Assembly (NCBI GenBank): GCA_034431315.1
Contig: DAOUDK010000119.1
Coordinates: forward strand, 28,873-92,872
Length of the DNA stretch: 64,000 nucleotides
Reading direction: 5' to 3'
Source of the DNA: Anaerolineae bacterium
GTDB lineage: Bacteria; Chloroflexota; Anaerolineae; VGOG01
Shown here piece after piece: positions 1,877-55,031 of the stretch. A model generated the notes under the pieces. The model searched no databases. It saw nothing but the letters and a program-made list of their open reading frames with translations, and was not told where the DNA came from. A program made the translations under genes and the position numbers. How positions within the stretch are numbered: the first letter of the stretch is position 1; every line of letters starts with the position of its first letter.

Positions 1877-3664
1877 TTATTCACCGCCTACCGGCGGCAG
1901 CTCTTGCTTCACCCACAAAACCAGGTTGTCGGTTTGCACCGGCGTTGGGGCCTGGCGATAGAACAGCCAGTCCATCAGGCCGGATCCTGAGAGGCCCTGA
2001 AATTTCCAGGAGGACGCCAGCGCAAAATCCTGCCCGCTGTACTGGGCTCCCAGGGTCGGTTCCTGCTCCCCAGCCGGAGCGATAACCACCGTTGTATCTA
2101 TGGAAGGGCTGAGCTGGGCCACGAATTCGACATCCTCGAAATCGCGCAGGTACCAGGCCAAAGCAGGCCCCGCACCCTGATGCACGGTCACAGCAACAGA
2201 CCTGGAATCACCTTCCCTGCTGGATACCATCTCCACGGTCTCCACCAGGTCGAATAGCTCACGAGAGGTGGGGGAAGCAAGCATGATCTCGTGGGGGTCA
2301 CTGCTGCGCTGATAGTTCAAGTAACAACTGATGCTCACGGTCAGGAAAACTAAACTGAGCAGCAAGACCAGTCCTCCCGCCCGCAAGGCTGGCCCCGGCC
2401 CGAAGGAGATCCAATAGAGCACGAACAAACCAACCAGAATAAGCACGGCTACCAGGGCCAACCACAGGTAATTGCGCCCGCCCCTGGAGGCATAGCCACC
2501 CAATTCCAGACCCAAGTACACGACCATGGGGAACGCCAGAGCCACGAACAGACCTTCCCGCACCCAGGAAGCTCGCGCCACCAGCTCATCGAGCAGACGA
2601 CCGATGAACGCGCCCGCCAGCAAAGCCAGCGGCAACACGATCAGCAAGACATCGCCCGGCCCTCGACCGCCGGCGACGAGGTAGACCAAAAACGCCACCA
2701 TCGTCCAATAGGCCAGGAAAAGGGAGAAGAAGTCGCGCCGCTTCAGCAGGTAGACCACCGCTGCCAGGCCGAAGACGAGGATCAACGGTTCGTAGACGAT
2801 CAGCAACTGGAGGTGGTAGTACCACGGCTGGCCCCCAGCCTGCGGCTGGAAAGCAGACAGCCAGGCAGTGAACAGGTCTATGCCATCCTGCAAGCCTGAG
2901 AGGTGAAGCAAGAAGCCTGTGCAAACCAGGACAAAGATGAGGACGAATAAGGCTGCGCAATCTCTCAACAAGCCGTTTGTCCCGCGCGCTGCCTGCCAGG
3001 CGTCGGAAATCCTCTGCCAATACTCGCTGGTGCCTGAGAACCTGTTGGCCAGAGCGAGCACCAGCCCGACGGTGGCGACGATGAGGATGAAGGTATAGGC
3101 CCCTGCCCCCGCGCTCAAGGCCAGGCCCAGAGCAGTTGCCACCAGGTACAGATGTTTTGGCTGCCTCTGGTCGAGATAGCCAAACAGCCCCCAGGTTATG
3201 GCCAGGGCGCAGGCCGCCACGACGATCTCGCCCCCTAGATAGCGGGAGAAGAAGAGGGTCGAGGGTGAAATTGCCAGGAGAAACGAGGCCGCCAGAGCGC
3301 CCATCCGCCCCAGACGATGGCGCAGGAAGTAAGGCCCGATCACCAGCAGCGCTCCGCTTAGGGCCGGCGCCAGTCGAGCCAGGAAATCATTGGCCCCAAA
3401 CAAGGCAAAGAGGAACATGTTGCTGGTGAAGAGAATAGGGCTGGATTGTGCCAGGGCCGAGCCCTGAGGTAAGCCTTGCGCGGAGTGCCAGGCGGCCAAC
3501 GCCTGGGCCGCTTCGGGGGCCTGCATGGGCCGATCGCCCAGTCCGTAGAATCGCAGGCCCACCGCCACCAGCGCGATGATGAGATAGAGAGCCACCTCCA
3601 CCGTCAGCGACGACGGCTTGACGATTTGCCTCGTTGTTTCTCTAGTACGTTTCGCTACCGTCAT
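1877..3664 (-). CDS. Polytopic GT-C fold glycosyltransferase-like membrane protein (family 39 / ArnT-PMT-like; TIGR03663-like)
   Basis: 595 aa, many TM helices, N-terminal YGLGDRPMQ..PEAAQALAA motif region typical of phospholipid-carrier-dependent glycosyltransferases; homologous to N-terminal half of the 1504-aa protein at 11388-15902. Confidence 0.55.
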   Translation of the reverse strand: MTVAKRTRETTRQIVKPSSLTVEVALYLIIALVAVGLRFYGLGDRPMQAPEAAQALAAWHSAQGLPQGSALAQSSPILFTSNMFLFALFGANDFLARLAPALSGALLVIGPYFLRHRLGRMGALAASFLLAISPSTLFFSRYLGGEIVVAACALAITWGLFGYLDQRQPKHLYLVATALGLALSAGAGAYTFILIVATVGLVLALANRFSGTSEYWQRISDAWQAARGTNGLLRDCAALFVLIFVLVCTGFLLHLSGLQDGIDLFTAWLSAFQPQAGGQPWYYHLQLLIVYEPLILVFGLAAVVYLLKRRDFFSLFLAYWTMVAFLVYLVAGGRGPGDVLLIVLPLALLAGAFIGRLLDELVARASWVREGLFVALAFPMVVYLGLELGGYASRGGRNYLWLALVAVLILVGLFVLYWISFGPGPALRAGGLVLLLSLVFLTVSISCYLNYQRSSDPHEIMLASPTSRELFDLVETVEMVSSREGDSRSVAVTVHQGAGPALAWYLRDFEDVEFVAQLSPSIDTTVVIAPAGEQEPTLGAQYSGQDFALASSWKFQGLSGSGLMDWLFYRQAPTPVQTDNLVLWVKQELPPVGGE

Positions 3665-3680: not shown

Positions 3681-3927
3681 TCACTACAACGAATTGAGAA
3701 AGGAACGAATTTCCTACGGAGAAACCAGGTTTTTCCCCTACTTGAATGGGCGCACTATTGCTTTTGAGGCTCTCCACGGTGCGGAAAGTCATATCTTCTT
3801 CAGCCAAAAACCTGGTTTCTGAACCCCGTCGCCGAAGTCGCCAGTCCAGCGTCCGCTTGGAGCTTGCAGGAAAGCGATTCCACTGCCAAGTTGCTCTCAA
3901 TTCGTTTGTTTCTAAATTCGCTGTAGT
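3681..3927. repeat. MITE-like palindromic intergenic element, full copy 1 (end A CACTACAACGAATTGAGAAAGGAACGAAT at left, inverted end B at right; internal GAAACCAGGTTTTT / AAAAACCTGGTTTC inverted module)
   Basis: Ends match copies at 24779-25012 (opposite orientation), 27233-27300 (minimal), 32847-32895 (solo end B); fills entire intergenic gap between 3664 and 3938. Confidence 0.7.
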
Positions 3928-3937
3928 TTCGGCTCAC

Positions 3938-6514
3938 CTACGGCCGCCGTTTATAAATGGTCACATTCCCCTGCTGGAAAGCCACGTCCATGAAGCGGTC
4001 GAATTTGGCCAGGGCCGCCGGGTTGTACTTGCCTCGCTCCAATGAGCCCACATAGACATAGGTTATACCATATTTTTCAAATAGCGTCAAGATACGCTGG
4101 ACGTCCGTGCTGCTGTAGATCGCGTTTATGTCAGGCTCGCGGCGGCCTGGCTCGTCGTAGTTTCCCCGCCACTGCAACTCGTGGCCGCCCCAACCCAACA
4201 CCGTGGGCAGTCCCGTGCGGCTGGAGACCCGCGCGTACTCGGTGAAGGAGCCGCCCGTGACCTCCAGGATGACCGGCGTGCCCGACACGTTTTCGTTGAG
4301 CCATTGGACGGCGGCATACTCGTCGGGGGAATGTTGGCGCACCCAGGCCAGGCCATCCAGGGTCGGCTGGGGAGCAAAGCCACCGGCCTTGTCGAACCCC
4401 GCGGCCAGGGGGTAGACCATGCCCAGGACGACGAGCACCGCCACGCCCACCAGGAACAGCGAGCGGCCCAATCCTTTCGCCTTTTCGATGACGTAATACA
4501 CCCCGTAGGCACTGGCCAGAGCCAGCAGCACCCAGGCCTGATAATAGAACTTGAACACGGTGTTCATGCGAGTGCCGAAGGTGTCCCGCAGGTAGACGAA
4601 CTCCACGCTGAGGGTGAGCACCAGGCCGGTGGCGATAATGAGCAACACGAAGAGGGTGCTCGGCTCGGCGATTCTCCCCTCACCTTTCCCCGCTCGCAAT
4701 CTCCGCCAGAGCAGGGCCACGACCCAGGCGATCAGCAGGGCCAGGAAGAGCCAGGTCCAGGGGTTGCCAAGCCGGATGGTGATGAGCTTTCTGATCAGCG
4801 AGGCCCAATCGGCCCCGCCGATCTGCTGCCGCACCATCTCGTTCGCCAGGATGCCTCGCAGAAAGGCCTGCCCCCCGGCGGTGAGCGTGACGAGGGCGAT
4901 GGATCCCAGGATGGCCAAAGGTGGCAAGAGTATGGTCCAAAACAGAGTCTTCAGGCCGCTACTCACCAGCTTCTTGCTCTCGACCTCGACTCTCAGCCGT
5001 TTCGTCGCCAACGCTACAAAGCCAATGACCACGAACACGAACGGCCCGAAAAAGATCAAGTACTGGTGCAACCTGGTAGGGTTGAACAGGTTGGGCAGGA
5101 TGCCCCCGGCCTGCGACTGGAAGCCAACGTAGAAGGGCAGGTAGAGGAGGCCGCCGAGGAGCGCCAGGCCCACGACTGTGTAAACGACGTCCCTCACCAA
5201 AGCCCAGTTGATTTTGCCATAGTACCCATAGCGGTGCAGTCCGTAGGTCACCGCCACCAGGAGCAGGTAGATGGGGAAGTCCCAGGTGTTGAGGAAGGCC
5301 AGTGCTCCCAGGCAGAGGGCGTGGAGGAGGGGATGTTGGAGGTTGGAAAATGGAGATTGGATATTGGAGATTAGAGCTTGGATATTGGATATTGGAAGTT
5401 GGAGGTTGGAGGTTGGAGTTTGGAGTTTGGAGTTTAGTATATTTAGCGCCAGGGCCAGGGCCAGCAGGACGAAGGGCAGGGCTAACACGTGGGGGTGCAT
5501 GTCGCCTAGCATGAAGCTGAAGAAGGGGAACTCGTCAATGACCTCCACGCTGTTGCCCAGCAGGTCCTTGTCGTGGATGACGCGGGAGGCGCGCCACCAC
5601 CACCATCCGCTGCCGAGATCGAACCACTTCCCAGTGACCTGCCCCTTGGTCACCAGCTCTTTTATGTCGAGCCAACTCCAAAACCCGGCCGAGCCGAGCC
5701 CTTTGGAGTACAGCACCTCGAAGATGCCTTCCAGGTTGCCGACGATGGCGACGAAAAGGGGACCCAGGAGGGGAACGAGGTAACGAGTTGACGAGTTAAT
5801 GAGTTTTCCTCGTTGCCTCGTTACCTCGTTGCCTCGTTGCCTCGTTACCTCGTTGCCTCGTTGCCTCATTGCCTCGTTGCCTCGTCCCTCAATGAGATTG
5901 TACACCAGCCCGTAGGCCCCCGTCACGGTCAGGGCAAACAGGAGCGTGATGCCCAGGTTGAAGGCGACGGCGGAAGCCACGCCCGACAGCTTGGTGAGCA
6001 GGGCCATCATCAGGTAGCCGAAGTAGTAGTAACTGATGCCGAAGCCGGAGAGCCAGGGGTCGTGGGGAGGGAAGGTGTCGCTGCGCAGGATGGCGTTGAG
6101 GAAGGCGAACTCCATGGGCTTCTCGGTAAGCATGATCTCAGGGCTGTAGGCTCGGAAGAGGGCGAAGAGGAGGAAGGCCAGGGCGAAGAGGGCTTCGTTG
6201 GCGATGACCAGGCGCCTGTTCCCACGCAAGAAGCTGGCTATCCCCGCCTCTCGCTTTCCCCTGGAGTAGAACCACCAGGAGCAGACGGCCACCACCAGGA
6301 TCGAGAAGACGATGCCGCCCCAACTATTGCGCAGGAAGCCGAAACTGGCCCCGATCCAAAGGACATAGCTGGTCAGGAGGATGCCCAGCGGCTTGGCGAA
6401 GGCGTAGCCCCTATCGGGCAGGTTCTTGAACAGCCGATAGGTAAGGGGCAAGGCCGCCAGGCCAAGTATCTCAATTATGAACCACCAAATCAAAACAGGA
6501 ATCAAAATTGCCAC
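3938..6514 (-). CDS. DUF2298-type large polytopic membrane protein (paralog of C-terminal half of 11388-15902 protein)
   Basis: 858 aa, >15 predicted TM helices, conserved C-terminal YVYVGSLERGKYNPAALAKFDRFM shared with 1504-aa paralog (YIYVGQLERTVYDAAGLAKFDEMV). Confidence 0.55.
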   Translation of the reverse strand: MAILIPVLIWWFIIEILGLAALPLTYRLFKNLPDRGYAFAKPLGILLTSYVLWIGASFGFLRNSWGGIVFSILVVAVCSWWFYSRGKREAGIASFLRGNRRLVIANEALFALAFLLFALFRAYSPEIMLTEKPMEFAFLNAILRSDTFPPHDPWLSGFGISYYYFGYLMMALLTKLSGVASAVAFNLGITLLFALTVTGAYGLVYNLIEGRGNEAMRQRGNEVTRQRGNEVTRQRGKLINSSTRYLVPLLGPLFVAIVGNLEGIFEVLYSKGLGSAGFWSWLDIKELVTKGQVTGKWFDLGSGWWWWRASRVIHDKDLLGNSVEVIDEFPFFSFMLGDMHPHVLALPFVLLALALALNILNSKLQTPTSNLQLPISNIQALISNIQSPFSNLQHPLLHALCLGALAFLNTWDFPIYLLLVAVTYGLHRYGYYGKINWALVRDVVYTVVGLALLGGLLYLPFYVGFQSQAGGILPNLFNPTRLHQYLIFFGPFVFVVIGFVALATKRLRVEVESKKLVSSGLKTLFWTILLPPLAILGSIALVTLTAGGQAFLRGILANEMVRQQIGGADWASLIRKLITIRLGNPWTWLFLALLIAWVVALLWRRLRAGKGEGRIAEPSTLFVLLIIATGLVLTLSVEFVYLRDTFGTRMNTVFKFYYQAWVLLALASAYGVYYVIEKAKGLGRSLFLVGVAVLVVLGMVYPLAAGFDKAGGFAPQPTLDGLAWVRQHSPDEYAAVQWLNENVSGTPVILEVTGGSFTEYARVSSRTGLPTVLGWGGHELQWRGNYDEPGRREPDINAIYSSTDVQRILTLFEKYGITYVYVGSLERGKYNPAALAKFDRFMDVAFQQGNVTIYKRRP
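5325..5437. repeat. Hexanucleotide (TTGGAG/TTGGAT)n microsatellite-like repeat inside CDS, in-frame (encodes SNLQ/SNIQ repeats on minus strand)
   Basis: Direct reading: ggaggttggaaaatggagattggatattggagattagagcttggatattggatattggaagttggaggttggaggttggagtttggagtttggagtttag; paralog at the same protein position has a short unrelated loop. Confidence 0.7.
5774..5888. repeat. Tandem 9/24-bp repeat (cctcgttgc / cctcgttac) with an inverted arm, in-frame inside DUF2298 CDS (encodes GNEVTRQR x4)
   Basis: Direct reading; left arm gaacgaggtaacgagttgacgagttaatgag is reverse complement of the tandem units; 40-aa insertion relative to the 1504-aa paralog. Confidence 0.7.
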
Positions 6515-6637: not shown

Positions 6638-7834
6638 TCAGTCTGTGTATTCTGGTTCGTTGATGAATTTCACTAATGGATGAAACGCTTGCATGATACG
6701 GACCACCTCATCAACCAAAGAGCGTCCTTGGTCTTTCCGAGACAGTTCGAGAGCTGAGTCTCTGTCAATTCGTCGTGTCACGGTCAGGTCGGGCAAGGGT
6801 ACTTGTTCCAAGAGCGTCTCGATGTAGCCAAATCCATGCGGCCCTAATTCGGGATCTTTGAGGTAGTCTACTTCCAGTCTAGCAATGCGATGGAAGTCAT
6901 AGAGCGATGCTTGTCTCTGTTTTCGTTCTCCCACTTGGATGAATAGTTCATCAAATAGTTCATCAGGCAGTAGCCTTGAAATAATCTCTCTAAACACTTG
7001 TTTGTCCTGGCGTATTTTCTTTCTCAGTCTAACAATCGCAGGTTTCAGTTCCACGTTGACAAAAACGTCAAGCGCGTAGGCTTTTAGCGATACAGTCTGG
7101 TGAGCCCACTGTCGGTATTTTCGCTTTCCAGGACCAAAGGCGACCCAGCACTCTTCACCTTTGGAACGAAGAGTGCCCACGTCATAGTCTTGGTAGAACG
7201 AATCGAAGTCCCACAGCCGGGCCTGGATCTTTTCGGCAAAAGACTGCACCGTGTCACGCACCCATCGCCTGGTGTCCTGGTCATCGTGAGTGACAAAAAA
7301 GTTGAACATCCCCTCCTCAAGACCAGTAAACTCTGCCAGTATCCGTTTAGGGCCTTTCTCTGGTGTTGCTATCTCCGTACCAGGGGGTGGTAGCTCTTCC
7401 CGATCAGGGGGTAGCTCTTCCCGACGTTCCATCCCCACCTGGATAGCCTTCACTAGCCGTGTCCAACCATCCTCTTCAAACAGGTTCACCCACTGGAATT
7501 TACGCAGCCTTTCTGGCACCTCACAATCTTCCAGCCGTACTGGAATCAGATAGATATCGTCCTCCAACTTCTCCAGCCAGATATTCAGCGCATCCTCGAT
7601 TTCCTTCTGAAGGAAACCTCTTTTCTTGACCGACTTTGCCGACAGACACGCCAGAAAGAAATCAGATCGCTGGATAGCTTTCTGGATACAAGACTGCCAT
7701 ATTTCTCCCGGTAGGATGTCCTTTTTGTCCATCCAGGGTTTGAACCTCGCATCGGATAACTTTTGGTGAAGATTCTTTACCTTTTCTTCATCCTCTCGCG
7801 CATAGCTGAGAAAAATCTGAGTCATTGCTTTCAC
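6638..7834 (-). CDS. TIR-domain protein (N-terminal ~135 aa TIR, C-terminal ~260 aa domain of unknown function)
   Basis: N-terminus MTQIFLSYAREDEEKVKNLHQKL...WMD...I..G..W...I..AI..S..FLACLS..S..K..F..EI fits bacterial TIR hallmarks; GTG start overlaps TGA stop of upstream gene (GTGA) with GGAGG 7 nt upstream; GC visibly lower than flanks. Confidence 0.65.
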   Translation of the reverse strand: MKAMTQIFLSYAREDEEKVKNLHQKLSDARFKPWMDKKDILPGEIWQSCIQKAIQRSDFFLACLSAKSVKKRGFLQKEIEDALNIWLEKLEDDIYLIPVRLEDCEVPERLRKFQWVNLFEEDGWTRLVKAIQVGMERREELPPDREELPPPGTEIATPEKGPKRILAEFTGLEEGMFNFFVTHDDQDTRRWVRDTVQSFAEKIQARLWDFDSFYQDYDVGTLRSKGEECWVAFGPGKRKYRQWAHQTVSLKAYALDVFVNVELKPAIVRLRKKIRQDKQVFREIISRLLPDELFDELFIQVGERKQRQASLYDFHRIARLEVDYLKDPELGPHGFGYIETLLEQVPLPDLTVTRRIDRDSALELSRKDQGRSLVDEVVRIMQAFHPLVKFINEPEYTD

Positions 7835-20085: not shown

Positions 20086-20178
20086 GGCATCCTCCTGGTA
20101 AGCGAGACCCCAGGTTTTTCCCCGTCTGAGCAAGCAGATCGTTTCATAGCACGTCAAAGCGGGGGGGTGAGGGTAACT

Positions 20179-20263
20179 GTCAACGGATTCCGGGAACGAA
20201 TTGAACGGATTGGAGTTCCGCACGTGACTTTTTCCGTTCAATCCGTTCAAAGAATCCGTTGAC
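20179..20263. repeat. Large imperfect palindrome built from AACGGATT / AATCCGTT motifs (GTCAACGGATTC ... GAATCCGTTGAC); related to AACGGATT variant of the MITE family
   Basis: Direct reading. Confidence 0.55.
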
Positions 20264-20425
20264 AGCAATCCATGCTTTCTATCCCCCTACTTTGGGGTGC
20301 TATGGATCATTTTGGGGGGACTTCTGGGATACGAAAAAATGTCTCTCATTAACCAAAAAACCCTGGTTTCTGATTCCTACCTCCGGTAGCGTATTATACC
20401 AGGAATCCCCCACAGTTCAAGGAGA

Positions 20426-21218: not shown

Positions 21219-21222
21219 ACGA

Positions 21223-21270
21223 ACACACAAGCCCCGGCGATTCAGATCCTCGCCGGGGCTTGTGTGTTTA
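21223..21270. terminator. Rho-independent terminator hairpin (CACACAAGCCCCGGCGA ... TCGCCGGGGCTTGTGTG + TTTAT); homolog at 23987-24029
   Basis: Direct reading. Confidence 0.7.
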
Positions 21271-21860: not shown

Positions 21861-22040
21861 GTGTTTTACCACACTTTGCCCCGCCTGCAAAGTCAAAGGA
21901 GGGTAGCCTATGGAAGATGTCGTCTTATCAGCCGAACGCTTATGAAATTCTGCAAAGGAGGCAGAGAAATGGCAAGCCAATCGTTGTTCGATTCGCTGAG
22001 TAACAATACACAAAAATCCGCAAAGGAGGGAAAAGGTAAG

Positions 22041-23897
22041 ATGAGGACGAATACAAGGAAGTTCAGACTGGCGCTGAGCGCGCTGACGTTGGTAGCACTG
22101 CTGCTTTCGGTCTTTGGAGCGGTTCCGGTGTGGGCACAGACGACTTGGTATGTGGATGATGACAATTGCCCCGGCCCTGGTGCTGGTACGCAGGTTGATC
22201 CCTTCTGCAGCATCCAGGACGCCATTGATGCTGCCACTGCTGGCGACACCATCAACGTGGCGGCGGGGACGTACACCGAGCACGTTACTATCGACAAGTC
22301 ATTAGCCCTTCAGGGGGCTGGCGCATCACAAACTACTATTGATGTCTCCGGTTTGCTGATACAGAATCCGCATGTCGCGGTCGAGGTTCAAAATGGTGTC
22401 AACAACGTTGTTGTAGATGGATTCACGATAATTGGAGTTCCAGCGTTCCATCACTCTGACGACTCGGTTATACGATGTGGCGGGAGCAGTGGCACCAATA
22501 ATGACATAACTATAAGCAACAACGTTATAGACGGATATGTAGGCATCCTGTTTAAGAATGGCGACAGTTTTACAGTGCAACAGAACGATATTACCTTCAA
22601 TAAAAATGCTATCGTCATTCAAAGTGGATGCACCAACGTCGACATTTCAGATAATACGATGACTGGCGGAACCAGTATGCAAACAGACCCCTATGGGATT
22701 TACATCACTTCCACCACTGGTTCTATCACAGGAAACACTATAGAGAATGTCATTGGACCTGATGACGGGGGTAAAGGTATTGGCGGAAGCAGTAACCATG
22801 ATCTGGTTATTGACGACAACGTCATCAATAACACGGGATATGATGGCATTTCCTTCTGGAGTAACACCCACCATGTCACCATCAGCAACAACACCCTGAG
22901 CAATAACGCACAGACGTATTACAAAGGTGGTGGAATAACCATCAAAGGCGACGACATCACCATCATAAACAACGACATTACCGGCAGCGGACATGACGGT
23001 GTCATCATTGACACCCATGTGCTCGACAGCGTACGTATTGACATCAATTACAACAATATATGGGGAAATGCTGATTATGGTGTCAATGTGAAGAATGCGG
23101 GTGAGACTGTCGATGCCGAGAACAACTGGTGGGGTCATGCCAGTGGGCCTGATGATGATGCAGGAGTTATTAATGGCACTGGTGATAAGATCAGCACCAA
23201 TGTTGATGCCGACCCCTGGATTGGGAAGACAGGTGAGCCGTCGGGGCACGGGGATGCCACCAATGGAGGCACAGCCACGGTCAGCGCGGGCAACAGTTCT
23301 GTGTACGTGGATGCAGACCCTGGGAAAAGCGGCGGGGTGAGTGTGGTCGAAGAAACAGCAGCTCCGCCGCAGGGCTTTGCCGGCATGGGCAGCGGCGCAA
23401 AGCTTAACAAATACCTTGTGATCACCAGCGACTTCGCCGACGGCGACTTCTTCGCCACCGTCAAGCTCCACTACACCCAGGCTGAGTATGAGGCCATGGG
23501 TAACCCCAGCAACCTGGCGCTGTTCTGGTGGGACGCGGCCAACAGTACGTGGATGCTGGCCGTGGACGCCAATACGACCGGCGGCAAAAGCTACAAAGGC
23601 AATAGTAACCCCGCGGACCATGCCACCCTCGGCGACTATGGCTTTTACGACCAGGGCGCGGCCGGGGGAATCATCTGGGCCAACGTTGACCACTTCAGTG
23701 ACTTCGGCGGCGCGGAAGTCGGTTCTGGAGGCGGCCCCACCGCCATCACCCTCTCCTCCTTCGCCGCCAGGTCAAGCGCAGGTCTGGGAACTCCCCTCGT
23801 TTGGTCGTGGCCGGTCGGGGTAGCAATGCTGGCCATGGGCGGCGTCCTCTGGGTGAGGCGGCGGCGGTCGAATAGGCCTAGAAGTGACCCCAACTGA
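22041..23897 (+). CDS. Secreted right-handed parallel beta-helix repeat protein with C-terminal hydrophobic helix + poly-Arg tail (sorting signal or anchor)
   Basis: Start at ATG 22041 after AAGGAGGG; signal peptide MRTNTRKFRLALSALTLVALLLSVFGAVPVWAQ; repeated N..I..N beta-helix rungs; C-term VWSWPVGVAMLAMGGVLWVRRRRSNR. Confidence 0.55.
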   Translation: MRTNTRKFRLALSALTLVALLLSVFGAVPVWAQTTWYVDDDNCPGPGAGTQVDPFCSIQDAIDAATAGDTINVAAGTYTEHVTIDKSLALQGAGASQTTIDVSGLLIQNPHVAVEVQNGVNNVVVDGFTIIGVPAFHHSDDSVIRCGGSSGTNNDITISNNVIDGYVGILFKNGDSFTVQQNDITFNKNAIVIQSGCTNVDISDNTMTGGTSMQTDPYGIYITSTTGSITGNTIENVIGPDDGGKGIGGSSNHDLVIDDNVINNTGYDGISFWSNTHHVTISNNTLSNNAQTYYKGGGITIKGDDITIINNDITGSGHDGVIIDTHVLDSVRIDINYNNIWGNADYGVNVKNAGETVDAENNWWGHASGPDDDAGVINGTGDKISTNVDADPWIGKTGEPSGHGDATNGGTATVSAGNSSVYVDADPGKSGGVSVVEETAAPPQGFAGMGSGAKLNKYLVITSDFADGDFFATVKLHYTQAEYEAMGNPSNLALFWWDAANSTWMLAVDANTTGGKSYKGNSNPADHATLGDYGFYDQGAAGGIIWANVDHFSDFGGAEVGSGGGPTAITLSSFAARSSAGLGTPLVWSWPVGVAMLAMGGVLWVRRRRSNRPRSDPN

Positions 23898-23986
23898 TCA
23901 CCATCCCCTGTCCCGGACTTCAGGGTCAGGAATAACGAGAAGCCACCTGTGCGCTCGCACAGACGGCTTCTCTTTTTCACCAAAAA

Positions 23987-24029
23987 CGCAAGCCCCGGCG
24001 ATCACGATCATCGCCGGGGCTGGTGTGTT
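23987..24029. terminator. Terminator hairpin (GCAAGCCCCGGCGAT ... ATCGCCGGGGCTGGTG), ~85% identical to 21223-21270
   Basis: Direct reading. Confidence 0.65.
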
Positions 24030-24097: not shown

Positions 24098-24760
24098 CTA
24101 CAGACTCGGACTTTGGGAAAGCATCAGGAGCCGCTCCCGTCGAACAACGTAAGGCTTTTCGGCCAGGCCCAGGGCGTCCAGCACCTCGTCGGGCCGCCCG
24201 GCGCCCTGACTACCGGCCCGAAGGCGCATTCCCAAGACCCAACCGTCAGTCTCTTTCCCCTCAACCCACAAGTCCTCGATCAAAGGGCGCAAATCGTAAT
24301 CCTTGCCCCGACGCTGGCGCGGCAGTTGCTCGGTCGAAAGCAACTCCTCCAGTTTCCCCTCCATCTCCTCCTGCGACCCATCCCAGAACACCGTCACCCG
24401 ATACTCCGCCGCGCGCACCTGAGACTGCAGGGAGGGTAACTTGGGATAAACCTCCTCCACGGAGAGCACCTCCAGCCCCGGCGGCAGATGGGGCACTAAT
24501 CCCTTAACGAAGTTGTAGGGAGAGATGTGGCGCTCCAGGACGACGTCCATCACCTCGCCGCGACTGGTGAAGCCCACGGGCAAGGGGGCAGCGACGGCTA
24601 TTTTGGGCCGGGGGTTGAAGCCGTGGGAGTAAGCCAGAGGCACTCGCGCCCGGCGCAAAGTCCTCTCCCACAGCCGCATCAGATCCAGGTGAGAGATGTA
24701 TTTTATCTCCTCGCCCTTGGCGAAGGTTATGCGCAAGCGCTGCTGTATTGTTGGCCTCAT
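24098..24760 (-). CDS. TIGR03936-family (DUF2344) protein, partner of TIGR03960 radical SAM
   Basis: 220 aa; ITFAKGEEIKYISHLDLMRLWERTLRRA... characteristic family N-terminus; adjacent to radical SAM gene. Confidence 0.55.
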   Translation of the reverse strand: MRPTIQQRLRITFAKGEEIKYISHLDLMRLWERTLRRARVPLAYSHGFNPRPKIAVAAPLPVGFTSRGEVMDVVLERHISPYNFVKGLVPHLPPGLEVLSVEEVYPKLPSLQSQVRAAEYRVTVFWDGSQEEMEGKLEELLSTEQLPRQRRGKDYDLRPLIEDLWVEGKETDGWVLGMRLRAGSQGAGRPDEVLDALGLAEKPYVVRRERLLMLSQSPSL

Positions 24761-24778: not shown

Positions 24779-25012
24779 ATCACTACAACGAATTCAGAAA
24801 TCAACGAATTGAGAGCAAGCAACTTGTACTAAGCGCAACTGCTCACCTCGCTCGGCCCGGATTGCCAAATCCGGGCCAGACGGGCCCCGACCAGTCGAAT
24901 TCAGCTCGTTAAGCCGCCGGATCTGGCGATCCGGCGGGAACAGGTGAGTAATCACCGCTAAGCTTGTCGAGGCATTCGTTCCTTTCTCAATTCGTTGTAG
25001 TGTCATAGTAAC
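24779..25012. repeat. MITE-like element copy 2 (end B at left, inverted end A at right); internal hairpins GGCCCGGAT..ATCCGGGCC and CCGCCGGATC..GATCCGGCGG
   Basis: Right end cattcgttcctttctcaattcgttgtagtg is the reverse complement of copy-1 left end; supplies last 5 codons + stop (DTTTN*) of radical SAM gene. Confidence 0.7.
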
Positions 25013-26825
25013 AACAAAACTCGTCAGAAACCCCGCAGTAAATGCAGCCTTCCCGACAATCAATGGTCGTCTCGCCGCGGAGGCTGCGCTGGTACTCTTC
25101 AATCAGGAATTCCTTCCTGACCCCCACGTCAATGTGATCCCAGGGGAGCACCTCATTGAGGGCGCGCTCCCTCCGAGCGTAGAAGTTGGGATCGAGGCCG
25201 GCGTCGGCGAAGGCCCGCCACCAAAGGTCCTCGTCGAGGAGCTCGTCCCAGGCATCGAATTTGGCTCCCCATTGCCAGGCACGGTGGATGACCTGGCCTA
25301 GCTGCCGGTCGCCGCGGGAGAGGGCGGCTTCCAGCAAGGTGGTGCGGGGGTCGTGCCAACTGAAGCTGATGCCAGGCCCCCTGAGCCCCCGCCGCAGCAA
25401 CGCCTGTCTCTCCTCCAAAGTTGCCTCATCAACCAGGGGCAGCCACTGGAACGGCGTGAAAGGCTTGGGCACGAAAGTGCCGAGGCTGACATTCACCTGA
25501 GTCCTCTTCCGCTGGTGACGCCGGCCGATGGCCCGCACCTTCTTCACCAAATCCACGATGGCCGCCACGTCCTCCAGGGTCTCCGTGGGCAGGCCCACCA
25601 TGAAGTACAGCTTGATCCGCCGCCAGCCGCTGGAATAGGCCGCCTCGGCCGTGCGCAGCAGGTCCTCTTCGGTGACGTTCTTGTTGATCACGTCCCGCAG
25701 GCGCTGGCTGCCCGCCTCCGGGGCGAAGGTCAGGCCCGTTTTGCGCCGCCCCTGAAACATCTCCGCTAGCTCAACTGAGAAAGAATCAGTGCGCAAGGAG
25801 GGCAGGGAAACGGCCAACGGCGGATGCTGATAGTCCGTGGTAAGCCGTCGCACCAGAGGCTCGATCTGGCTGTGATCACTGGAGCTCAGGGAGACCAGGG
25901 CCACCTCCTCGTAGCCCGTCTCCTTAACGATGTCCTCCACCGTTAGCAGCACCTCATCCAGAGGCCGCTCGCGCAGGGGGCGATAGATGAAACCCGCCTG
26001 GCAGAAGCGGCAGCCCTGGGTACAGCCCCGCTGGATCTCGATCATGGCCCGATCATGGATCACGTCAATGTAGGGCATGACAAATTTGGTCGGCGCCGGA
26101 GGCAGAGTCTCCACGACGCGCTTTCGGATCATGGCCCTGGCTTCGGGAACCAGCGGCTCCACGGCAGCCACCGTGCCATCGTCGTGGTAGCGAACATCGT
26201 AGAGACTGGGCACGTAGATGCCCTCTATCTTCGCCGCCTCTCGCAGGAAATCCGCCTTCGAAGCTCGAAACTCCCGATAAGCCAGCACCAACTCCAGCAG
26301 CACCTCTTCCCCCTCTCCGATCACGAACAGGTCGAAGAAGTCGGCCAGAGGCTCGGCGTTGTAGGTGCCACTCCCGCCTCCGATGATCAGCGGATCGGCG
26401 TCGCCTCGCTCCGCCGCCAGGGGTGAGAGGCCGGCCAGATCCAGCATGTTCAGCACGTTGGTGTAGTTCAGCTCGTACTGCAACGAGAAGCCAATTATAT
26501 CAAAATCGGCCAGGGGGCGCCGCGACTCCAGACTGTAGAGGGGGATGCCCACGCCTCGCATGGCCTCTTCCATGTCTATCCAGGGCGCATAGACCCGCTC
26601 GGCAAGGACGCCCTCCTCCCTGTTGAGGATGTCGTAGAGGATCATCAGACCCAGGTTGGACATGCCCACTTCGTAGGTGTCGGGATAGGCCAGGGCTACT
26701 TTGACCTCAACCTGGTCCCAATCCTTGACCACGCTGTTCCACTCGTGACCAGTGTACCGGGCGGGTTTGGCTACCTTGGGCAAAATGCGATCCAAAACTC
26801 GCTGCGTTATATCCATCCTAGTCAC
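24987..26825 (-). CDS. TIGR03960-family B12-binding-domain radical SAM protein
   Basis: 612 aa; CxxxCxxC (QRGCTQGCRFCQAG) radical SAM core, N-terminal B12-binding-like domain; conserved pairing with TIGR03936. Confidence 0.65.
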   Translation of the reverse strand: MTRMDITQRVLDRILPKVAKPARYTGHEWNSVVKDWDQVEVKVALAYPDTYEVGMSNLGLMILYDILNREEGVLAERVYAPWIDMEEAMRGVGIPLYSLESRRPLADFDIIGFSLQYELNYTNVLNMLDLAGLSPLAAERGDADPLIIGGGSGTYNAEPLADFFDLFVIGEGEEVLLELVLAYREFRASKADFLREAAKIEGIYVPSLYDVRYHDDGTVAAVEPLVPEARAMIRKRVVETLPPAPTKFVMPYIDVIHDRAMIEIQRGCTQGCRFCQAGFIYRPLRERPLDEVLLTVEDIVKETGYEEVALVSLSSSDHSQIEPLVRRLTTDYQHPPLAVSLPSLRTDSFSVELAEMFQGRRKTGLTFAPEAGSQRLRDVINKNVTEEDLLRTAEAAYSSGWRRIKLYFMVGLPTETLEDVAAIVDLVKKVRAIGRRHQRKRTQVNVSLGTFVPKPFTPFQWLPLVDEATLEERQALLRRGLRGPGISFSWHDPRTTLLEAALSRGDRQLGQVIHRAWQWGAKFDAWDELLDEDLWWRAFADAGLDPNFYARRERALNEVLPWDHIDVGVRKEFLIEEYQRSLRGETTIDCREGCIYCGVSDEFCCYYDTTTN

Positions 26826-27232: not shown

Positions 27233-27300
27233 CACTACAACGGATTGAGAAAGGAACAGATTTCTTGCTCTCAATCCGTTATATTCTAAATCCGTTGTTG
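27233..27300. repeat. Minimal 68-bp MITE copy (end A and inverted end B directly abutting; AACGGATT variant)
   Basis: cactacaacggattgagaaaggaacagatttcttgctctcaatccgttatattctaaatccgttgttg; encodes last residues (NNGFRI*) of ROK gene. Confidence 0.7.
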
Positions 27301-28256
27301 TCTTCCTGCAGTAGTACCAGTGCAACCGCGCCCAGGAGAGCCACGTCGTCGCCGAGAGTAGCGGGCACAATGGGAGTGTTCTCCCAATAATAGCTGACCA
27401 TAGCCCGTTGGCGCACCGTGGCCCGGATAGGCTCGAAGAGGAGGTCGCCGGCTTTGGTCACGCTGCCTCCGATGACGATCAGGCTGGGGTTGAGGATGTG
27501 CAGCAGGTTGACGATGCCGACCCCGATGTAGAACCCGGCCTGGCGGAAAATCTCGATGGCTATGGGATCACCCGCCTGGGCAGCCTGGTTGACGTCTTTG
27601 GCGGTGATCTTGTCCAGGTCGCCGCCAACCAAGTCGGTGATGGCTGTCTCGGCTCCATCTCTGATGAGTTCCCTGGCGCGGCGAGCGATGGCCGGGCCCG
27701 CCGCCAGAGCCTCCAGGCAGCCTATGTTGCCGCACTTGCAGCGGGGGCCATGAGCCTCGACGGTCTGATGGCCTACCTCCCCCGCCAGACCATGAGCTCC
27801 CAGCAGCAGCCTGTTATCAACGATGACGCCGCCGCCAATGCCGGTGCTGACAGTGATGTAGATCAGATCAGCGACGCCCTGGCCGGCCCCGAAGCGCTGC
27901 TCCGCCAAAGCGGCCAGGTTAGCGTCGTTGCCCACCACGACGGGCAAATCGAACTCCGCTTCCATGAGATCCTTCAGGGGGACATTCTTCCAGCCGGGCA
28001 GGTTGGGGGCGTCCCTGACGATCCCTCGCCAGGGATCCAAAGGCCCAGGCGCAGCGATGCCGATGGCGCTCACCTGGCCGATGTCGGCAGGCAACACCTG
28101 GCGGATGGACTCCTCGATGCGCTCCAGCACTGCCCCTAGCCCCTCGTCGGCCATAGTCGGCCGGCTCACCCGCTGGATGATTTCGCCCTGAGCATCGGCC
28201 AGCGCGGCCCGAATCTGGGTACCGCCCAGGTCTACGCCAACGATCAGCTTTTCCAC
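27279..28256 (-). CDS. ROK-family sugar kinase (glucokinase-like)
   Basis: IVGVDLGGTQIRAAL...; zinc motif GPRCKCGNIGCLE; 325 aa. Confidence 0.7.
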   Translation of the reverse strand: MEKLIVGVDLGGTQIRAALADAQGEIIQRVSRPTMADEGLGAVLERIEESIRQVLPADIGQVSAIGIAAPGPLDPWRGIVRDAPNLPGWKNVPLKDLMEAEFDLPVVVGNDANLAALAEQRFGAGQGVADLIYITVSTGIGGGVIVDNRLLLGAHGLAGEVGHQTVEAHGPRCKCGNIGCLEALAAGPAIARRARELIRDGAETAITDLVGGDLDKITAKDVNQAAQAGDPIAIEIFRQAGFYIGVGIVNLLHILNPSLIVIGGSVTKAGDLLFEPIRATVRQRAMVSYYWENTPIVPATLGDDVALLGAVALVLLQEDNNGFRI

Positions 28257-30744: not shown

Positions 30745-31338
30745 TCACTCGTTACTGGCTAGTGATGCCTGTTGGGCCAGGATGATCGCTTCCGCAACCT
30801 CTTTCATAGGCTTGCGGGTGTTCATGCTCATCTTCTGGATCTTGCGGAAGGCCTCGGCCTCGGTTATGCCCTGCGTGTCCATCAAGATACCCTTGGCCCG
30901 GTCAACCAGCTTCCTGGTCTCCAGCGCCAGCTTGAGGTCGCCAACTTCTTTTTCCAGGGCCCGGAACTCGGCAAAACGGGCCACAGCCACTTCGATAGCC
31001 GGCGACAGATCAGACTCCCGGAAGGGCTTGACGATGTAGCCTACCACGCCCGCATCCTTGGCCCGCTCAATGAGCTCCTGTTGGCTATAGGCAGTGAGCA
31101 GCAAGACAGGGGAGACCCTCTCCTCCGTCAGGATCTTGGCTGCATCAATGCCATCCATGTCTGGCATCTTGATGTCCATAATCACCACATCGGGCCTCAG
31201 CTCCCGCGCCAAATTCACCGCGCTGCGTCCATCGCCCACCTCGCCGATGACGAGATAACCCAGGTTGGTCAACATCTCCCTGAGATCCATGCGGATAATA
31301 GATTCATCGTCGGCGATGATCACTCTCGTTCGTTCCAC
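30745..31338 (-). CDS. ANTAR-domain response regulator (AmiR/NasT family)
   Basis: Receiver domain + C-terminal ANTAR (LETRKLVDRAKGILMDTQGITEAEAFRKIQKMSMNTRKPMKEVAEAII). Confidence 0.75.
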   Translation of the reverse strand: MERTRVIIADDESIIRMDLREMLTNLGYLVIGEVGDGRSAVNLARELRPDVVIMDIKMPDMDGIDAAKILTEERVSPVLLLTAYSQQELIERAKDAGVVGYIVKPFRESDLSPAIEVAVARFAEFRALEKEVGDLKLALETRKLVDRAKGILMDTQGITEAEAFRKIQKMSMNTRKPMKEVAEAIILAQQASLASNE

Positions 31339-32822
31339 GCTTCTTCACCTCCCAGTGTTTGTTTGGGGAAGGTCACGATGGCCGACACCCCATCCCCCTC
31401 CCTCAGTTCGAATTGTCCTTTGAGATCGTCCTGGACCAAGGTTTGGACTATCTGCAAGCCCAGACTGTCGGCTTGCTCCAGGCTGAAATCCTCTGGCAAT
31501 CCCTGCCCGTCGTCCACCACGGTGATGACCACCCTGTCGCCATCGTCCCGCAGGTTGACCGAGATGGTGCCGCCGGGCTTGCGCTCGTAGCCATGCTCCA
31601 CCGCGTTCTGCAGCAGCTCGTTAATGATCAGGGCGCAAGTCGTCGCTTGTTGGGCAGGCAGATAAATGCCAGGCCCACTTAAGCTCAGGCGAATCCGCTT
31701 ATCTGGCTGCAGAATCCCCTGCCGGGTGTGGTTCACGATACGCTGACTCACATCTGTGATGTTGATAATCTTTGCTTCCTGCTGCGCGAAGAACTCGTGC
31801 ACGACGGCCACGCTGAGGATACGCGCCACGCTATCGTTCAGAGCGCGTCTGACCTCCTCCGACTCGCTGCGCCTACTTTGCATCCGTAACAAGGCAGCTA
31901 TGACTTGCAGGTTATTCTTCACTCGATGATGAATCTCCTGGATCATGGCCGACTTGACCTTCAGCTCCCGCTCCTTACGTCGCACCTCGGTCTCATCGTG
32001 AACCGTTAGCAGCACTCCCACCAGACGGGGCTCGAGGGAAGGCGAGCCCAGAAAGCGGCGTAAACCGACCAACCGCTCCCCATGAGAGATCAGAGGAATG
32101 GCCTTCTTGATCCAGACGCGATGGCCCTCCTGGGTTTCCTCTTCGAGGCAACGCTTTTCCTGCCAAGCCCTGACCACCAGAGCTTCGTCCTCTGTCTCCA
32201 GATCGAAGGTGCGTTTCCCCAGGAGGCTATCCAGATAGCCCAGCCGGCGATAGAGGCTGGTAGCGATACCGCTGGCATATCGAATCTGCCCCTGGCTATC
32301 CACGACCATGATGCCGTCGTGCTCGCCGAAAGGAGAAAGCTGCTGCGCGCCTTCGATCTCCCCCCGCAGCAGCATCTCCTGCAATTGCCTCACCGCCCGC
32401 TGGAAGACCTTGCTGCGCCGATGATGCCGCTCGTGCTCGATGAGGTTGGTCTCAATGATTAGAACCCCAAGCAACTTCCCCTCCTCGTTGCGGATGGGGC
32501 GAACTTCTTGTAGTACTGGAGCACCATCAGGGATCAGCGTCCTGTTGCCGTGCACCGAGCGCCCCCTGCCCAGGGCCTGGCAAACGAGAGGCTCCTCAGC
32601 CGCCGTCATCGTCCGTCCGACGATGGGCTCTGGGTGAATCGGGGCAATGGAGTGAGGCCGCGCCTGGGCTACCACTGCTGCACGATTGAGCGAGAGCAGG
32701 CAATAGATCAACAGGTCGGCGCGGCTAACGTCGGCCACGATGGGCATATCGTTTTCTATTTTTTGTAGAAATGCGATGTCCTCCTCGGTCAGGTCACCGC
32801 ATTTGTAGACCACTTCGTCCAT
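31320..32822 (-). CDS. Sensor histidine kinase (PAS/GAF + HisKA_2/HWE-type H-box HHRVKNNLQVIAALLRMQ + HATPase)
   Basis: 500 aa; overlaps ANTAR RR start by 19 bp. Confidence 0.7.
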   Translation of the reverse strand: MDEVVYKCGDLTEEDIAFLQKIENDMPIVADVSRADLLIYCLLSLNRAAVVAQARPHSIAPIHPEPIVGRTMTAAEEPLVCQALGRGRSVHGNRTLIPDGAPVLQEVRPIRNEEGKLLGVLIIETNLIEHERHHRRSKVFQRAVRQLQEMLLRGEIEGAQQLSPFGEHDGIMVVDSQGQIRYASGIATSLYRRLGYLDSLLGKRTFDLETEDEALVVRAWQEKRCLEEETQEGHRVWIKKAIPLISHGERLVGLRRFLGSPSLEPRLVGVLLTVHDETEVRRKERELKVKSAMIQEIHHRVKNNLQVIAALLRMQSRRSESEEVRRALNDSVARILSVAVVHEFFAQQEAKIINITDVSQRIVNHTRQGILQPDKRIRLSLSGPGIYLPAQQATTCALIINELLQNAVEHGYERKPGGTISVNLRDDGDRVVITVVDDGQGLPEDFSLEQADSLGLQIVQTLVQDDLKGQFELREGDGVSAIVTFPKQTLGGEEAWNERE

Positions 32823-32846: not shown

Positions 32847-32895
32847 AGACTACAACGAATTGGGAATAAAACGAATTGAGAGCAAGAAACTTGTG
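32847..32895. repeat. Solo end-B-type MITE arm (ACTACAACGAATTGGGAATAAAACGAATTGAGAGCAAGAAACTTGT)
   Basis: ~80% identical to left arm of copy 2. Confidence 0.55.
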
Positions 32896-32976
32896 CTGAT
32901 CCCTCAGCCTGAGGACCTCGACTCATACTTCGACGGTGAGCTCAGCCCTGGCCTGCCTTGGTCGGTCAGGCCAGAA

Positions 32977-54915: not shown

Positions 54916-55011
54916 AAACCAGGTTTTTGACTCAAAAGATGTGAGTTCTCGCATCGTGGAGAGTTCTAAAAGCGGCGGTCTGTCCATTCAATTGAGGAAA
55001 AACCTGGTTTC
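54915..55011. repeat. Intergenic palindromic element carrying GAAACCAGGTTTTT ... AAAAACCTGGTTTC module (shared with MITE copy 1 interior)
   Basis: Direct reading. Confidence 0.55.
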
Positions 55012-55031
55012 TTAAAAAGGAGTTGTTACCA

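Follow-up and report, generated by a model that had tools for sequence, protein, structure and literature searches.

The 64,000-nucleotide stretch analyzed here (the window; positions 28,873 to 92,872 of contig DAOUDK010000119.1, assembly GCA_034431315.1) comes from an Anaerolineae bacterium and is an ordinary bacterial chromosome segment of approximately 59% GC whose closest relatives are Anaerolineae metagenome-assembled genomes (MAGs). A sequence-only reading of this DNA had proposed a family resembling MITEs (transposable elements of the miniature inverted-repeat type), with asymmetric ends and cargo-carrying forms, or alternatively a modular system like the repetitive extragenic palindromic (REP) sequences. 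A repeat search of the find_repeats type identified seven arms of one family at four intergenic loci, and we conclude that the window holds four insertions and one variant of a widespread short palindromic intergenic repeat family. The copies in the window are ordinary members; the interest lies in the family and in its partner, a gene found beside the repeats in other genomes that encodes a protein with two PDDEXK_3 domains. We consider it probable that repeats and protein together form a repeat-plus-nuclease system that resembles the pairing of REP doublets (REPINs) with REP-associated tyrosine transposases (RAYTs) and is built on a different enzyme. The family is represented in the window by the following features.

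3682 to 3710, plus strand: arm A of copy 1 (CACTACAACGAATTGAGAAAGGAACGAAT; profile E = 1e-9)
3887 to 3927, minus strand: arm B of copy 1, a degenerate copy (ACTACAGCGAATTTAGAAACAAACGAATTGAGAGCAACTTG; profile E = 9e-6)
24781 to 24827, plus strand: arm B of copy 2 with loop and a stub of the partner arm (repeat search and profile)
24974 to 25002, minus strand: arm A of copy 2 (repeat search and profile)
27233 to 27302, no strand: copy 3, the canonical hairpin of ~68 to 70 bp made of arm A, loop, and inverted arm B (AACGGATT variant), with arm A at 27233-27257 (plus) and arm B at 27256-27302 (minus)
32847 to 32894, plus strand: copy 4, a solo arm B with a loop stub (repeat search and profile)
20177 to 20265, no strand: a related 89-bp palindrome, a subfamily variant with several AACGRATT octamers per arm at another spacing (fold z = -7.4)

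The genes around the copies have unrelated housekeeping functions: a PMT_2 glycosyltransferase, a DUF2298 protein, a radical SAM protein (TIGR03960) with a DUF2344 protein, YjbQ, a ROK protein, and a PdtaS kinase. Arm A of copy 1 has its outer end 17 nt upstream of the start codon (ATG) of the PMT_2-family gene (1877-3664, minus strand), and arm B of this copy adjoins the stop codon of the DUF2298 gene (3938-6514, minus strand). In copy 2, 20 nt separate the outer end of arm B from the downstream ATG of the DUF2344 gene (24098-24760, minus strand), and arm A encodes the last five codons and the TGA of the radical SAM gene (24987-26825, minus strand), whose product ends in DTTTN. Copy 3, which folds as DNA with z values of -5.1 and -5.2, occupies the whole gap between the ROK and YjbQ genes, and the TAA of the ROK open reading frame (ORF), which ends in EDNNGFRI, lies inside its arm B. 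Copy 4 is 24 nt upstream of the ATG of a PdtaS-type histidine kinase gene (31320-32822, minus strand), with a possible remnant of its partner arm at 32926-32951. Thus, the copies do fill intergenic gaps, as the sequence-only reading had stated, but not exactly, because arms run into the ends of the radical SAM and ROK genes and supply their stops. The overwriting of two stop codons is a sign of amplification or turnover, and the repeats in the window alter both the gene ends and the 5' leaders of ordinary housekeeping genes.

A direct reading of the DNA located the sequences of the earlier description where it had placed them. Copies 1 and 2 have the same two ends in opposite orientation, their A arms (3682-3710, plus, and 24974-25002, minus) being 100% complementary over 29 nt, and the description of copy 3 as A fused to inverted B (68 bp) and of copy 4 as a solo B arm was likewise accurate. 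The B arms (3887-3927, 24781-24827, 27256-27302, and 32847-32894) match one another at 78 to 89%. The octamer AACGRATT occurs 16 times in the 64 kb, where 1.7 occurrences are expected, and all 16 fall in five intergenic loci; a 14-mer core allowed up to two mismatches matches seven times, compared with 2.2 expected. A profile of 155 arms from other genomes, searched with nhmmer, recovered exactly these seven arms in the window, with E values of 1e-9 to 9e-6, and nothing else of note.

Comparison with the copies in other genomes revealed the anatomy of the repeat. The basic unit is a 65- to 70-bp imperfect hairpin of two inverted arms with the consensus A[CG]T-ACAACGRATT-nRGAAWnn-AACGRAT, and in the alignment of arms from other genomes conservation begins abruptly at A[CG]T-ACAACG. 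Each arm contains two direct copies of AACGRATT, 16 nt apart, with a purine-rich GAA spacer between them; a single arm does not fold on itself and is not a palindrome. Arms A and B have their first 29 nt in common (90% complementary) and differ in the spacer, which is GAGAAAGG in A and TRGAATAN in B, a difference that is conserved. The extra ~16 nt of B comprise the loop (TGAGAGCAAGAA) and the beginning of the opposite arm of the canonical hairpin; copy 3 and many foreign copies display this arrangement. The proposed asymmetry is therefore real, and it recurs in other Chloroflexota genomes, but the two ends are not unrelated sequences. In the Beggiatoaceae, the arms are symmetric and the hairpin is perfect. 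The terminal CTAC/GTAG of the Chloroflexota hairpins belongs to the palindrome between the arms and is GTAC in the Beggiatoaceae. Fifty-six hairpins have loops of 3 to 55 nt, mostly 12 to 19 nt, and fold with z values of -5 to -15. In the long copies 1 and 2, this pair of arms encloses additional DNA, which is either small nested elements or resident sequence.

The family extends well beyond the window. A pattern scan of one genome per species with the query ACAACGRATTNRGAANNNAACRRAT, for which we estimated approximately four chance matches, returned at least 115 genome loci. Among the matches listed, the hosts are Anaerolineae, Anaerolineales, Caldilineaceae, Ardenticatenaceae, Promineifilaceae, and Thermoflexia MAGs as well as the gammaproteobacterial giant sulfur bacteria Thiomargarita, Parabeggiatoa, and Marithrix, and several of the genomes listed hold at least 5 to 7 loci each. 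One MAG, W31_78, has three copies that sit at unrelated loci and agree perfectly over ~110 bp (copies of ~110 to 125 bp), and a fourth whose loop has received another small element. These results bear out the earlier proposal of a multicopy family of noncoding inverted-repeat elements with sharp ends. Head-to-tail tandem arrays of whole hairpins are found at loci L037 and L214. The periodic hits at 72 to 76 nt in L037 were considered as a CRISPR array and rejected as such; they are whole hairpins, head to tail, with a constant short linker and no unique spacers. In the viral database IMG/VR, the arm pattern is present in 16 viral-classed contig stretches (L192 to L207; 57 to 66% GC; at most five arms per contig), and the arm-bearing stretches, for example, UViG_3300031673_000256 and UViG_3300017963_005169, are without the tandem PDDEXK_3 gene.

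No description of these repeats was found, in agreement with the earlier impression that the family was new. Searches of the literature by sequence, by family name, and for Beggiatoaceae repeats yielded no paper with the repeat sequence or linking the families involved. Rfam contains no matching family at gathering or relaxed thresholds; its only match in the window is tRNA-Pro, and five repeat-rich loci gave only sub-threshold matches to generic microRNA hairpins. The bracketing of one conserved double-domain nuclease gene by these repeats in other genomes, described below, suggests that the hairpin repeats of Chloroflexota and giant sulfur bacteria belong to an undescribed counterpart of REP/RAYT systems.

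Two further observations concern the copies themselves. In MAG W31_78, the core hairpin lies inside a longer palindromic unit of ~125 bp with outer ends TCTCGGAAAGT (L005 2030-2160, L090 ~500-690, L102 ~2440-2620, and L101 ~180-310). At L024 4240-4540, a small element with ends TGTARTGGTCAAC sits in the hairpin loop and is flanked by a ~13-bp duplication (AAAGAAGAATAAT).

The position and folding of the copies raised the question of whether they are mobile at all. The arms could instead be operators or sites for architectural proteins, or RNA hairpins that stabilize or process polycistronic mRNAs, maintained by selection. The arms in the window that end 17 to 24 nt upstream of start codons, just before the ribosome-binding site, would suit such a role, as would the strong folding and the persistence of insertions at orthologous sites over roughly 10 to 14% protein divergence. 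In other genomes, however, the distance from arm to start codon is not fixed (median, 142 nt) and an orientation bias is unclear (7 versus 3), the neighboring genes are functionally unrelated (188 Pfam families), and the arrays, nested insertions, truncated arms, and overwritten stops resemble the debris of insertion. The lack of an Rfam match and the intact nuclease site in domain 1 of the partner protein described below also speak against maintenance as immobile sites, which we regard as improbable. A general role as promoter or 5' leader was rejected separately, on the grounds that each pair has one arm facing a gene's 3' end, that the arms contain no sigma-70-like match, and that distance and orientation vary elsewhere.

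Clustering of the ORFs around the at least 115 arm loci identified a conserved protein of ~265 amino acids encoded directly beside arms in L037, L051, L095, and L112; in L108, the same gene is present beside arms as a pseudogene. Pfam and NCBIfam assign to each protein two PDDEXK_3/TIGR04256 (GxxExxY) domains and nothing else. In L037 and L095, the tandem gene is embedded in arm arrays on both sides. A transposase, the autonomous partner that the sequence-only reading had suggested seeking, did not emerge from the clustering. In a Pfam scan of 150 arm-adjacent ORFs, which together contain the 188 families, the recurring ones were FGE-sulfatase (4), PDDEXK_3 (3), Uma2 (3), and response regulators (3), and no transposase family (DDE, HUH, Y1, TnpA, or TnpB) was among them. 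Arm pairs 0.4 to 3 kb apart enclose only the PDDEXK_3 gene or noncoding DNA.

These findings bear directly on a classical MITE, in which the arms would be terminal inverted repeats recognized in trans by the transposase, DDE-type or otherwise conventional, of an unsampled insertion sequence (IS) and the PDDEXK_3 gene would be a mere passenger. The family has much of the outward form of one: inverted ends of 29 to 45 nt, small size, lack of coding capacity, many copies with sharp boundaries, unrelated interiors in the long forms, and identical copies at unrelated loci. By the measure of terminal inverted repeats, too, arms of 29 to 47 nt with 78 to 100% complementarity are what a MITE would have. 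Nevertheless, no target-site duplication was seen by eye at any copy inspected, the arm-adjacent ORFs include no recurring transposase, and the only consistently enclosed gene changes sequence together with the repeats, as a passenger would not. We therefore consider a classical MITE quite unlikely and find that, of the two possibilities raised at the outset, a modular REP-like system is the better fit.

Genes for Uma2/DUF820 proteins, another PD-(D/E)XK family, also adjoin arms, both in Thiomargarita (L103 2685-3650 and 5504-6364, and L015 1017-1946) and in Chloroflexota (L007, L078 381-977, and L083). The two Uma2 copies of L103 share an arm-bearing upstream flank. This adjacency could be chance in Uma2-rich genomes or could be a second association; because the family is highly multicopy, we did not count it as a partner.

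The linkage of repeat and tandem gene was also apparent in loci chosen without regard to the repeat. We selected 72 metagenome loci, all short, by protein similarity alone from an alignment of the tandem protein. The density of AACGRAT in them is 10.15 per kb in the 300-bp flanks of the gene, 0.33 per kb distally, which we estimate to be about the random expectation, and 0.13 per kb within the gene. At 62 of the 72 loci, one or both sides of the gene carry at least two motifs, and the loci below two motifs that were inspected (L154, L159, and L160) have variant arms such as AACGGAA. Motifs upstream are mostly forward and those downstream mostly reverse, which places the gene between inverted arms, often between whole hairpins or arrays.

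Each lineage has the tandem gene at a single locus, in this loop position with inverted arms or arm arrays on either side. One protein sequence was recovered on 14 contigs from several samples with the same neighbors every time, and diverged loci are syntenic (L159, L160, L166, and L178 between the same two genes; L116 and L125 with a common downstream gene); different lineages have different gene contexts. The tandem gene thus looks like a resident, single-locus gene rather than an insertion sequence. In this pattern it is closer to RAYTs, which are single-copy and mostly vertically inherited (PMC5581495), than to an active insertion sequence. Many clusters of tandem genes are known only from ~1-kb contigs, as would be expected if assemblies break at the flanking repeats.

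If the arms are sites for the tandem protein, repeat and protein should change together, and they do. The variants AACGAAT and AACGGAT track clades of the protein. A profile search of 1.84 billion representatives returned 59 clusters at E <= 1e-30, with approximately 45 full-length tandem representatives whose identity extends down to roughly 25%. All five of the distant tandem relatives that were fetched are flanked by repeats of their own, different in sequence and identical in architecture: two short direct motifs ~16 nt apart with a GAA-rich spacer. Their motif pairs are ACCACGGATG..ACACGAT, ACAACGGAA..AACGGAC, ACCACAGAT..ACACAGAT, AACAGGATT..GCAGGAT, and CCCAACGGATT..AGCGGATGG, and the full repeats are ACCACGGATGGAGGAAATACACGAT, ACAACGGAAAAGAAAACACAACGGAC, ACCACAGATAAGTACCAACACAGAT, GAGAACAGGATTTGCAGAATGGCAGGAT, and GCCCAACGGATTCGAGAAAACAGCGGATGG. 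Four of the five genes are flanked on each side by inverted arms, with complementarity across the gene of up to 97%; for the fifth, L219, we saw repeats downstream only. Co-divergence of this kind is our best evidence that the tandem protein may have the arms as its cognate sites, and none of the alternatives accounts as well for repeats that diverge together around one gene family.

The tandem gene might, conversely, be a selfish gene of the homing endonuclease type that lodges in preexisting hairpin loops, with the repeats spreading or persisting by other means, such as host recombination or another enzyme. PD-(D/E)XK homing endonucleases such as I-Ssp6803I exist, the gene is always at the loop position between inverted arms, and hairpin loops demonstrably accept other insertions. 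One family member is found inside a cas4-cas1 operon (L219 1501-2292, and also L220), where a divergent tandem PDDEXK_3 gene lies between cas4 and cas1 in a CRISPR-Cas locus of a 40% GC organism. A homing gene would be expected in many hairpins, but we observed one gene locus per lineage with conserved synteny, and the repeat sequence changes with the protein even in very distant members. The latter fits recognition of the arms, although it is silent on which partner drives the spread. I-Ssp6803I uses the same fold for element-specific cleavage, which alone needs partner or host functions to finish a move; homing endonucleases sit in introns or inteins and are not flanked by genome-wide hairpin repeats, unlike the tandem gene. 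On balance, we regard homing as unlikely, though less so than a classical MITE or a set of immobile sites.

The protein itself appears suited to cutting DNA. Its fold is PD-(D/E)XK, as judged from sequence families and from a predicted structure; a first AlphaFold2 model from a shallow alignment (mean predicted confidence, pLDDT, of 71) was replaced by a model from a more diverse alignment. Among 35 sequences with 24 to 64% identity to the reference P0122, E30, D69, and K82 are invariant and E80 is nearly so; these four residues form the PD-(D/E)XK catalytic set (E...D...ExK) of domain 1. Domain 2 has H/F/W, R/N/H, A, and F or a similar residue at the corresponding places. With the catalytic set kept in domain 1 and lost from domain 2, the protein would be a built-in pseudodimer, and the fusion of an active to an inactive domain suggests that each molecule has one active site. 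A single active site is typical of nickases or of enzymes that act on asymmetric or structured DNA, as known from restriction and nicking enzymes, and the tandem protein may resemble these. It has no match in PADLOC or PHROGs and no relative in the PDB by sequence.

The spread of the family, its physical linkage to the tandem gene, the joint divergence of repeat and protein, and the conserved catalytic residues, all of them observed, lead us to propose that a dedicated tandem PDDEXK_3 protein of ~265 amino acids, encoded elsewhere in genomes of this kind, has the arms as its cognate DNA sites. We infer that the protein would bind the paired octamers and nick or cut at or near the arm termini, after which host replication or repair may copy, excise, or reinsert hairpin units. 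The outcome would be a dispersed, long-lived population of repeats, inherited mostly vertically and transferred occasionally between phyla. Hydrolytic nucleases are unable to join DNA, so any move would have to be finished by host repair or replication or by an additional factor, and this completion is the weakest step of the model.

Several points weigh against the proposed system. The copying step has no known enzyme, given that a PD-(D/E)XK nuclease cannot join strands alone. The function of PDDEXK_3 is listed as unknown (PMC3424549), and binding, cleavage, and transposition have been shown for no PDDEXK_3 protein. The at least 115 genome loci were chosen by the motif itself. The 64-kb window contains no tandem PDDEXK_3 gene, and no partner was found in approximately 30 Beggiatoaceae loci despite abundant repeats. 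At L214, arms occur only beside the tandem gene within 20 kb, so that some carriers may lack a dispersed population. Single elements contain both A and G at the variable position of the octamer; that part of the covariation is therefore weak, and at this position covariation does not discriminate between base pairing and protein recognition. The lack of visible target-site duplications at the window arms, the listed hairpin flanks, and the W31_78 copies counts here as well, as does the lack of a clean empty site among the orthologous gaps described below, which hold other, unrelated hairpins or repeats.

The closest parallel is provided by the REP/REPIN-RAYT systems of Pseudomonas and enterobacteria (PMC3116915, PMC3337134, PMC5581495, and PMC8266576). 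These share with the present family many-copy short palindromic extragenic repeats that form hairpin doublets, a dedicated single-copy and vertically inherited gene flanked by its own repeats or clusters, covariation of repeat sequence with gene lineage, and long-lived individual insertions. The folding inverted units and whole-hairpin arrays (L037 and L214) correspond to REPINs, and the repeat-flanked gene with its single context on 14 contigs and its synteny among the metagenome loci corresponds to a RAYT gene. The differences lie in the enzyme, which is a tandem PD-(D/E)XK pseudodimer rather than an HUH Y1 transposase (Y1_Tnp, PF01797) and so has no covalent strand-transfer chemistry available; in the arm, which is a direct octamer pair rather than a palindrome led by GT(A/G)G and has no external GTAG; and in the hosts, Chloroflexota and Beggiatoaceae.

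Given these similarities, the family might simply be a REP/REPIN family of the usual kind, dependent on a conventional RAYT (an IS200-like HUH tyrosine transposase) encoded elsewhere in the genome. Its elements are palindromic, extragenic, and clustered, they flank a gene, and the Chloroflexota termini contain CTAC/GTAG. However, the single arms are not palindromic, the GTAG lies within the palindrome and is replaced by GTAC in the Beggiatoaceae, the flanked gene encodes PDDEXK_3 rather than Y1_Tnp, and no Y1 transposase recurs among the arm-adjacent ORFs. This explanation is, in our judgment, very improbable, the least so favored of those considered. The palindrome-associated transposable elements derived from IS200/IS605 were also rejected; no TnpA or TnpB family recurs among the arm-adjacent ORFs, and the ends here are mutually inverted, whereas each end of those elements has its own subterminal hairpin.

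Other systems share individual features. Escherichia coli BIMEs (bacterial interspersed mosaic elements) and Streptococcus pneumoniae BOX elements are mosaics of a few short modules in variable number and order, with tandem clusters; the mosaic build is alike, but the sequences are unrelated, and here one protein-coding gene is consistently embedded among the modules. Bacterial MITEs such as Correia, ERIC, and Nezha (PMC2229807) likewise have terminal inverted repeats, are small, noncoding, and intergenic, form a long hairpin, and are sometimes fused to gene ends. They differ from the present family, in which no target-site duplication was seen, no parental IS with a conventional transposase was found among the arm loci, and the arms have internal direct repeats and a conserved A/B asymmetry. 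TnsA of Tn7 (PMC3424549) has the same nuclease fold and performs an element-specific cleavage that needs partner or host functions to finish the move, but it acts with the DDE protein TnsB inside a large transposon and has no genome-wide hairpin repeats on its flanks. The nearest precedent for a tie to PD-(D/E)XK, itself speculative, is the hupL MITE of "Candidatus Thiomargarita nelsonii," which has a 10-bp direct repeat and a 19-bp inverted repeat and was proposed to derive from an element with a YhgA-like PD-(D/E)XK_2 "transposase" on the strength of a single BLAST hit (PMC4853749). There, too, a MITE-like repeat of a giant sulfur bacterium is tentatively connected to a PD-(D/E)XK protein and not to a DDE or HUH enzyme, but the protein families differ (PF12784/PF04754, compared with PF13366 here) and the sequence was not found to match the arms.

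A broader claim would be that this is a second, independently evolved symbiosis of a repeat and a domesticated enzyme, in which a fused active/inactive PD-(D/E)XK pseudodimer recognizes paired octamers in the hairpin repeats and drives the spread and upkeep of the repeats by nicking or cutting and host repair, with no HUH, DDE, serine, or tyrosine recombinase. We put this forward tentatively, as a real possibility that we do not yet favor. To our knowledge, REPIN/RAYT is so far the only well-described short-repeat population that a dedicated single-copy enzyme maintains; another example, based on an unrelated nuclease fold, would mean that the repeat-plus-enzyme lifestyle evolved more than once. 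It would also provide a first function for part of the large PDDEXK_3 family, one that is testable for the tandem PDDEXK_3/GxxExxY branch, and would imply transfer of such a system across phyla, between Chloroflexota and giant sulfur bacteria. It poses the mechanistic question of how a purely hydrolytic nuclease propagates DNA, would explain why many tandem-gene clusters are known only from ~1-kb contigs if assemblies break at repeats, and offers natural pairs of protein and DNA site (at least six distinct motifs) for the study or engineering of specificity.

Orthologous sites in relatives indicate how long individual insertions last. Contigs were fetched through identity of the radical SAM protein to that of the window (L188, 94%; L189, 91%; L190, 89%; L191, 86%). 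The gap between ROK and YjbQ holds the same hairpin in the window, L189, and L191; in L188 only the gene-proximal half is present, and in L190 there is no element but an unrelated 90-nt hairpin-bearing sequence instead. The presence, partial presence, and absence of the element at this site imply that insertions persist over appreciable divergence yet turn over. The L189 and L191 hairpins have a 23-nt insert in one arm. This recurrent insert (TACTTCGACAGGCTCAGTACAGG) splits one hairpin arm at the same position in L189 (1882-1904), L191 (1441-1463), and L043 (3598-3620); similar pieces occur in L180, L131, and L107, and next to copy 4's solo arm is a related stretch (window 32926-32951).

In L188, the start of a tandem PDDEXK_3 gene lies ~3 kb from the YjbQ-radical SAM-DUF2344 cluster, with arms of the window type upstream. 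A gene for a large serine recombinase (L188 606-2432) lies between the tandem gene and YjbQ, where the window has the ROK gene; it may be an integrated element or the result of a rearrangement.

The gap between the radical SAM and DUF2344 genes, occupied in the window by copy 2, is hypervariable. In the window it spans 226 bp and includes arms. L188 has 165 bp of unrelated sequence at this place, L189 has ~14 bp with the CCGCCGGATC hairpin and without arms, L190 contains four tandem repeats of 110 bp, and in L191 an additional gene is present. Within copy 2 itself, the interior consists of the following features.

24854 to 24937, no strand: interior of copy 2, two GC-rich hairpins
24854 to 24877: interior hairpin 1, GGCCCGGAT...ATCCGGGCC
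24914 to 24937: interior hairpin 2, CCGCCGGATC...GATCCGGCGG

The presence of the CCGCCGGATC hairpin at the armless L189 site argues against the interior of copy 2 being cargo; it is probably resident sequence or another small element. The repeated units in these gaps are ~110 bp long between the radical SAM and DUF2344 genes of L190 (four units, 5820-6357) and ~130 bp long between the YjbQ and radical SAM genes of L189 (2342-2742). The gaps of this gene cluster are hot spots for small repeats.

Nested inside copy 1 is an element of a second hairpin family, represented in the window by three features.

3720 to 3820, no strand: element nested between the arms of copy 1, AGAAACCAGGTTTTT ... AAAAACCTGGTTTCT, 101 bp
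54914 to 55012, no strand: second full copy, 99 bp, in the orientation opposite to 3720-3820 and with a homologous interior
20355 to 20373, no strand: remnant of one end

The recurrence of the GAAACCAGGTTTTT module at the latter two sites was correctly noted in the sequence-only reading. The third recurrence that it listed, at 20179-20263, is instead the separate palindrome of AACGRATT octamers (20177-20265), and the module is not an interior of the arm family but an independent element nested in copy 1. Together with the interior of copy 2, this makes the idea of cargo-carrying forms doubtful.

The second family has perfect 15-nt ends (AGAAACCAGGTTTTT / AAAAACCTGGTTTCT), a near-constant length of 99 to 101 bp, and interiors that are unrelated between genomes. 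Copies are found at L188 7599-7707, L008 7276-7386, L047 5959-6067, and L105 5515-5624, and a full copy in L188 occupies the place orthologous to the remnant at 20355-20373, beside a response-regulator gene. "Empty" forms, with ends 18 to 19 nt apart, are among the entries at L017 ~3463-3495, L082 ~7457-7490, and L108 ~3353-3386.

The window contains further repeats of other kinds. Coding tandem repeats are present at 387-1427, near the left end (six to seven units of ~141 bp), at 51961-52653 (three 285-bp units), and at 63855-63992, at the right end (an 18/33-nt repeat of the proline/threonine type). Within or beside the DUF2298 gene are a 7-nt GGAGNTT run and an 8-nt CCTCGTTG run (5317-5437 and 5789-5900, respectively). 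Finally, two 48-nt GC-rich hairpins (AAGCCCCGGCGA...TCGCCGGGGCTT) at 21222-21269 and 23982-24029, 79% complementary and 2.7 kb apart, flank the ORF region at 21861-23897 and look like terminators or another small repeat.

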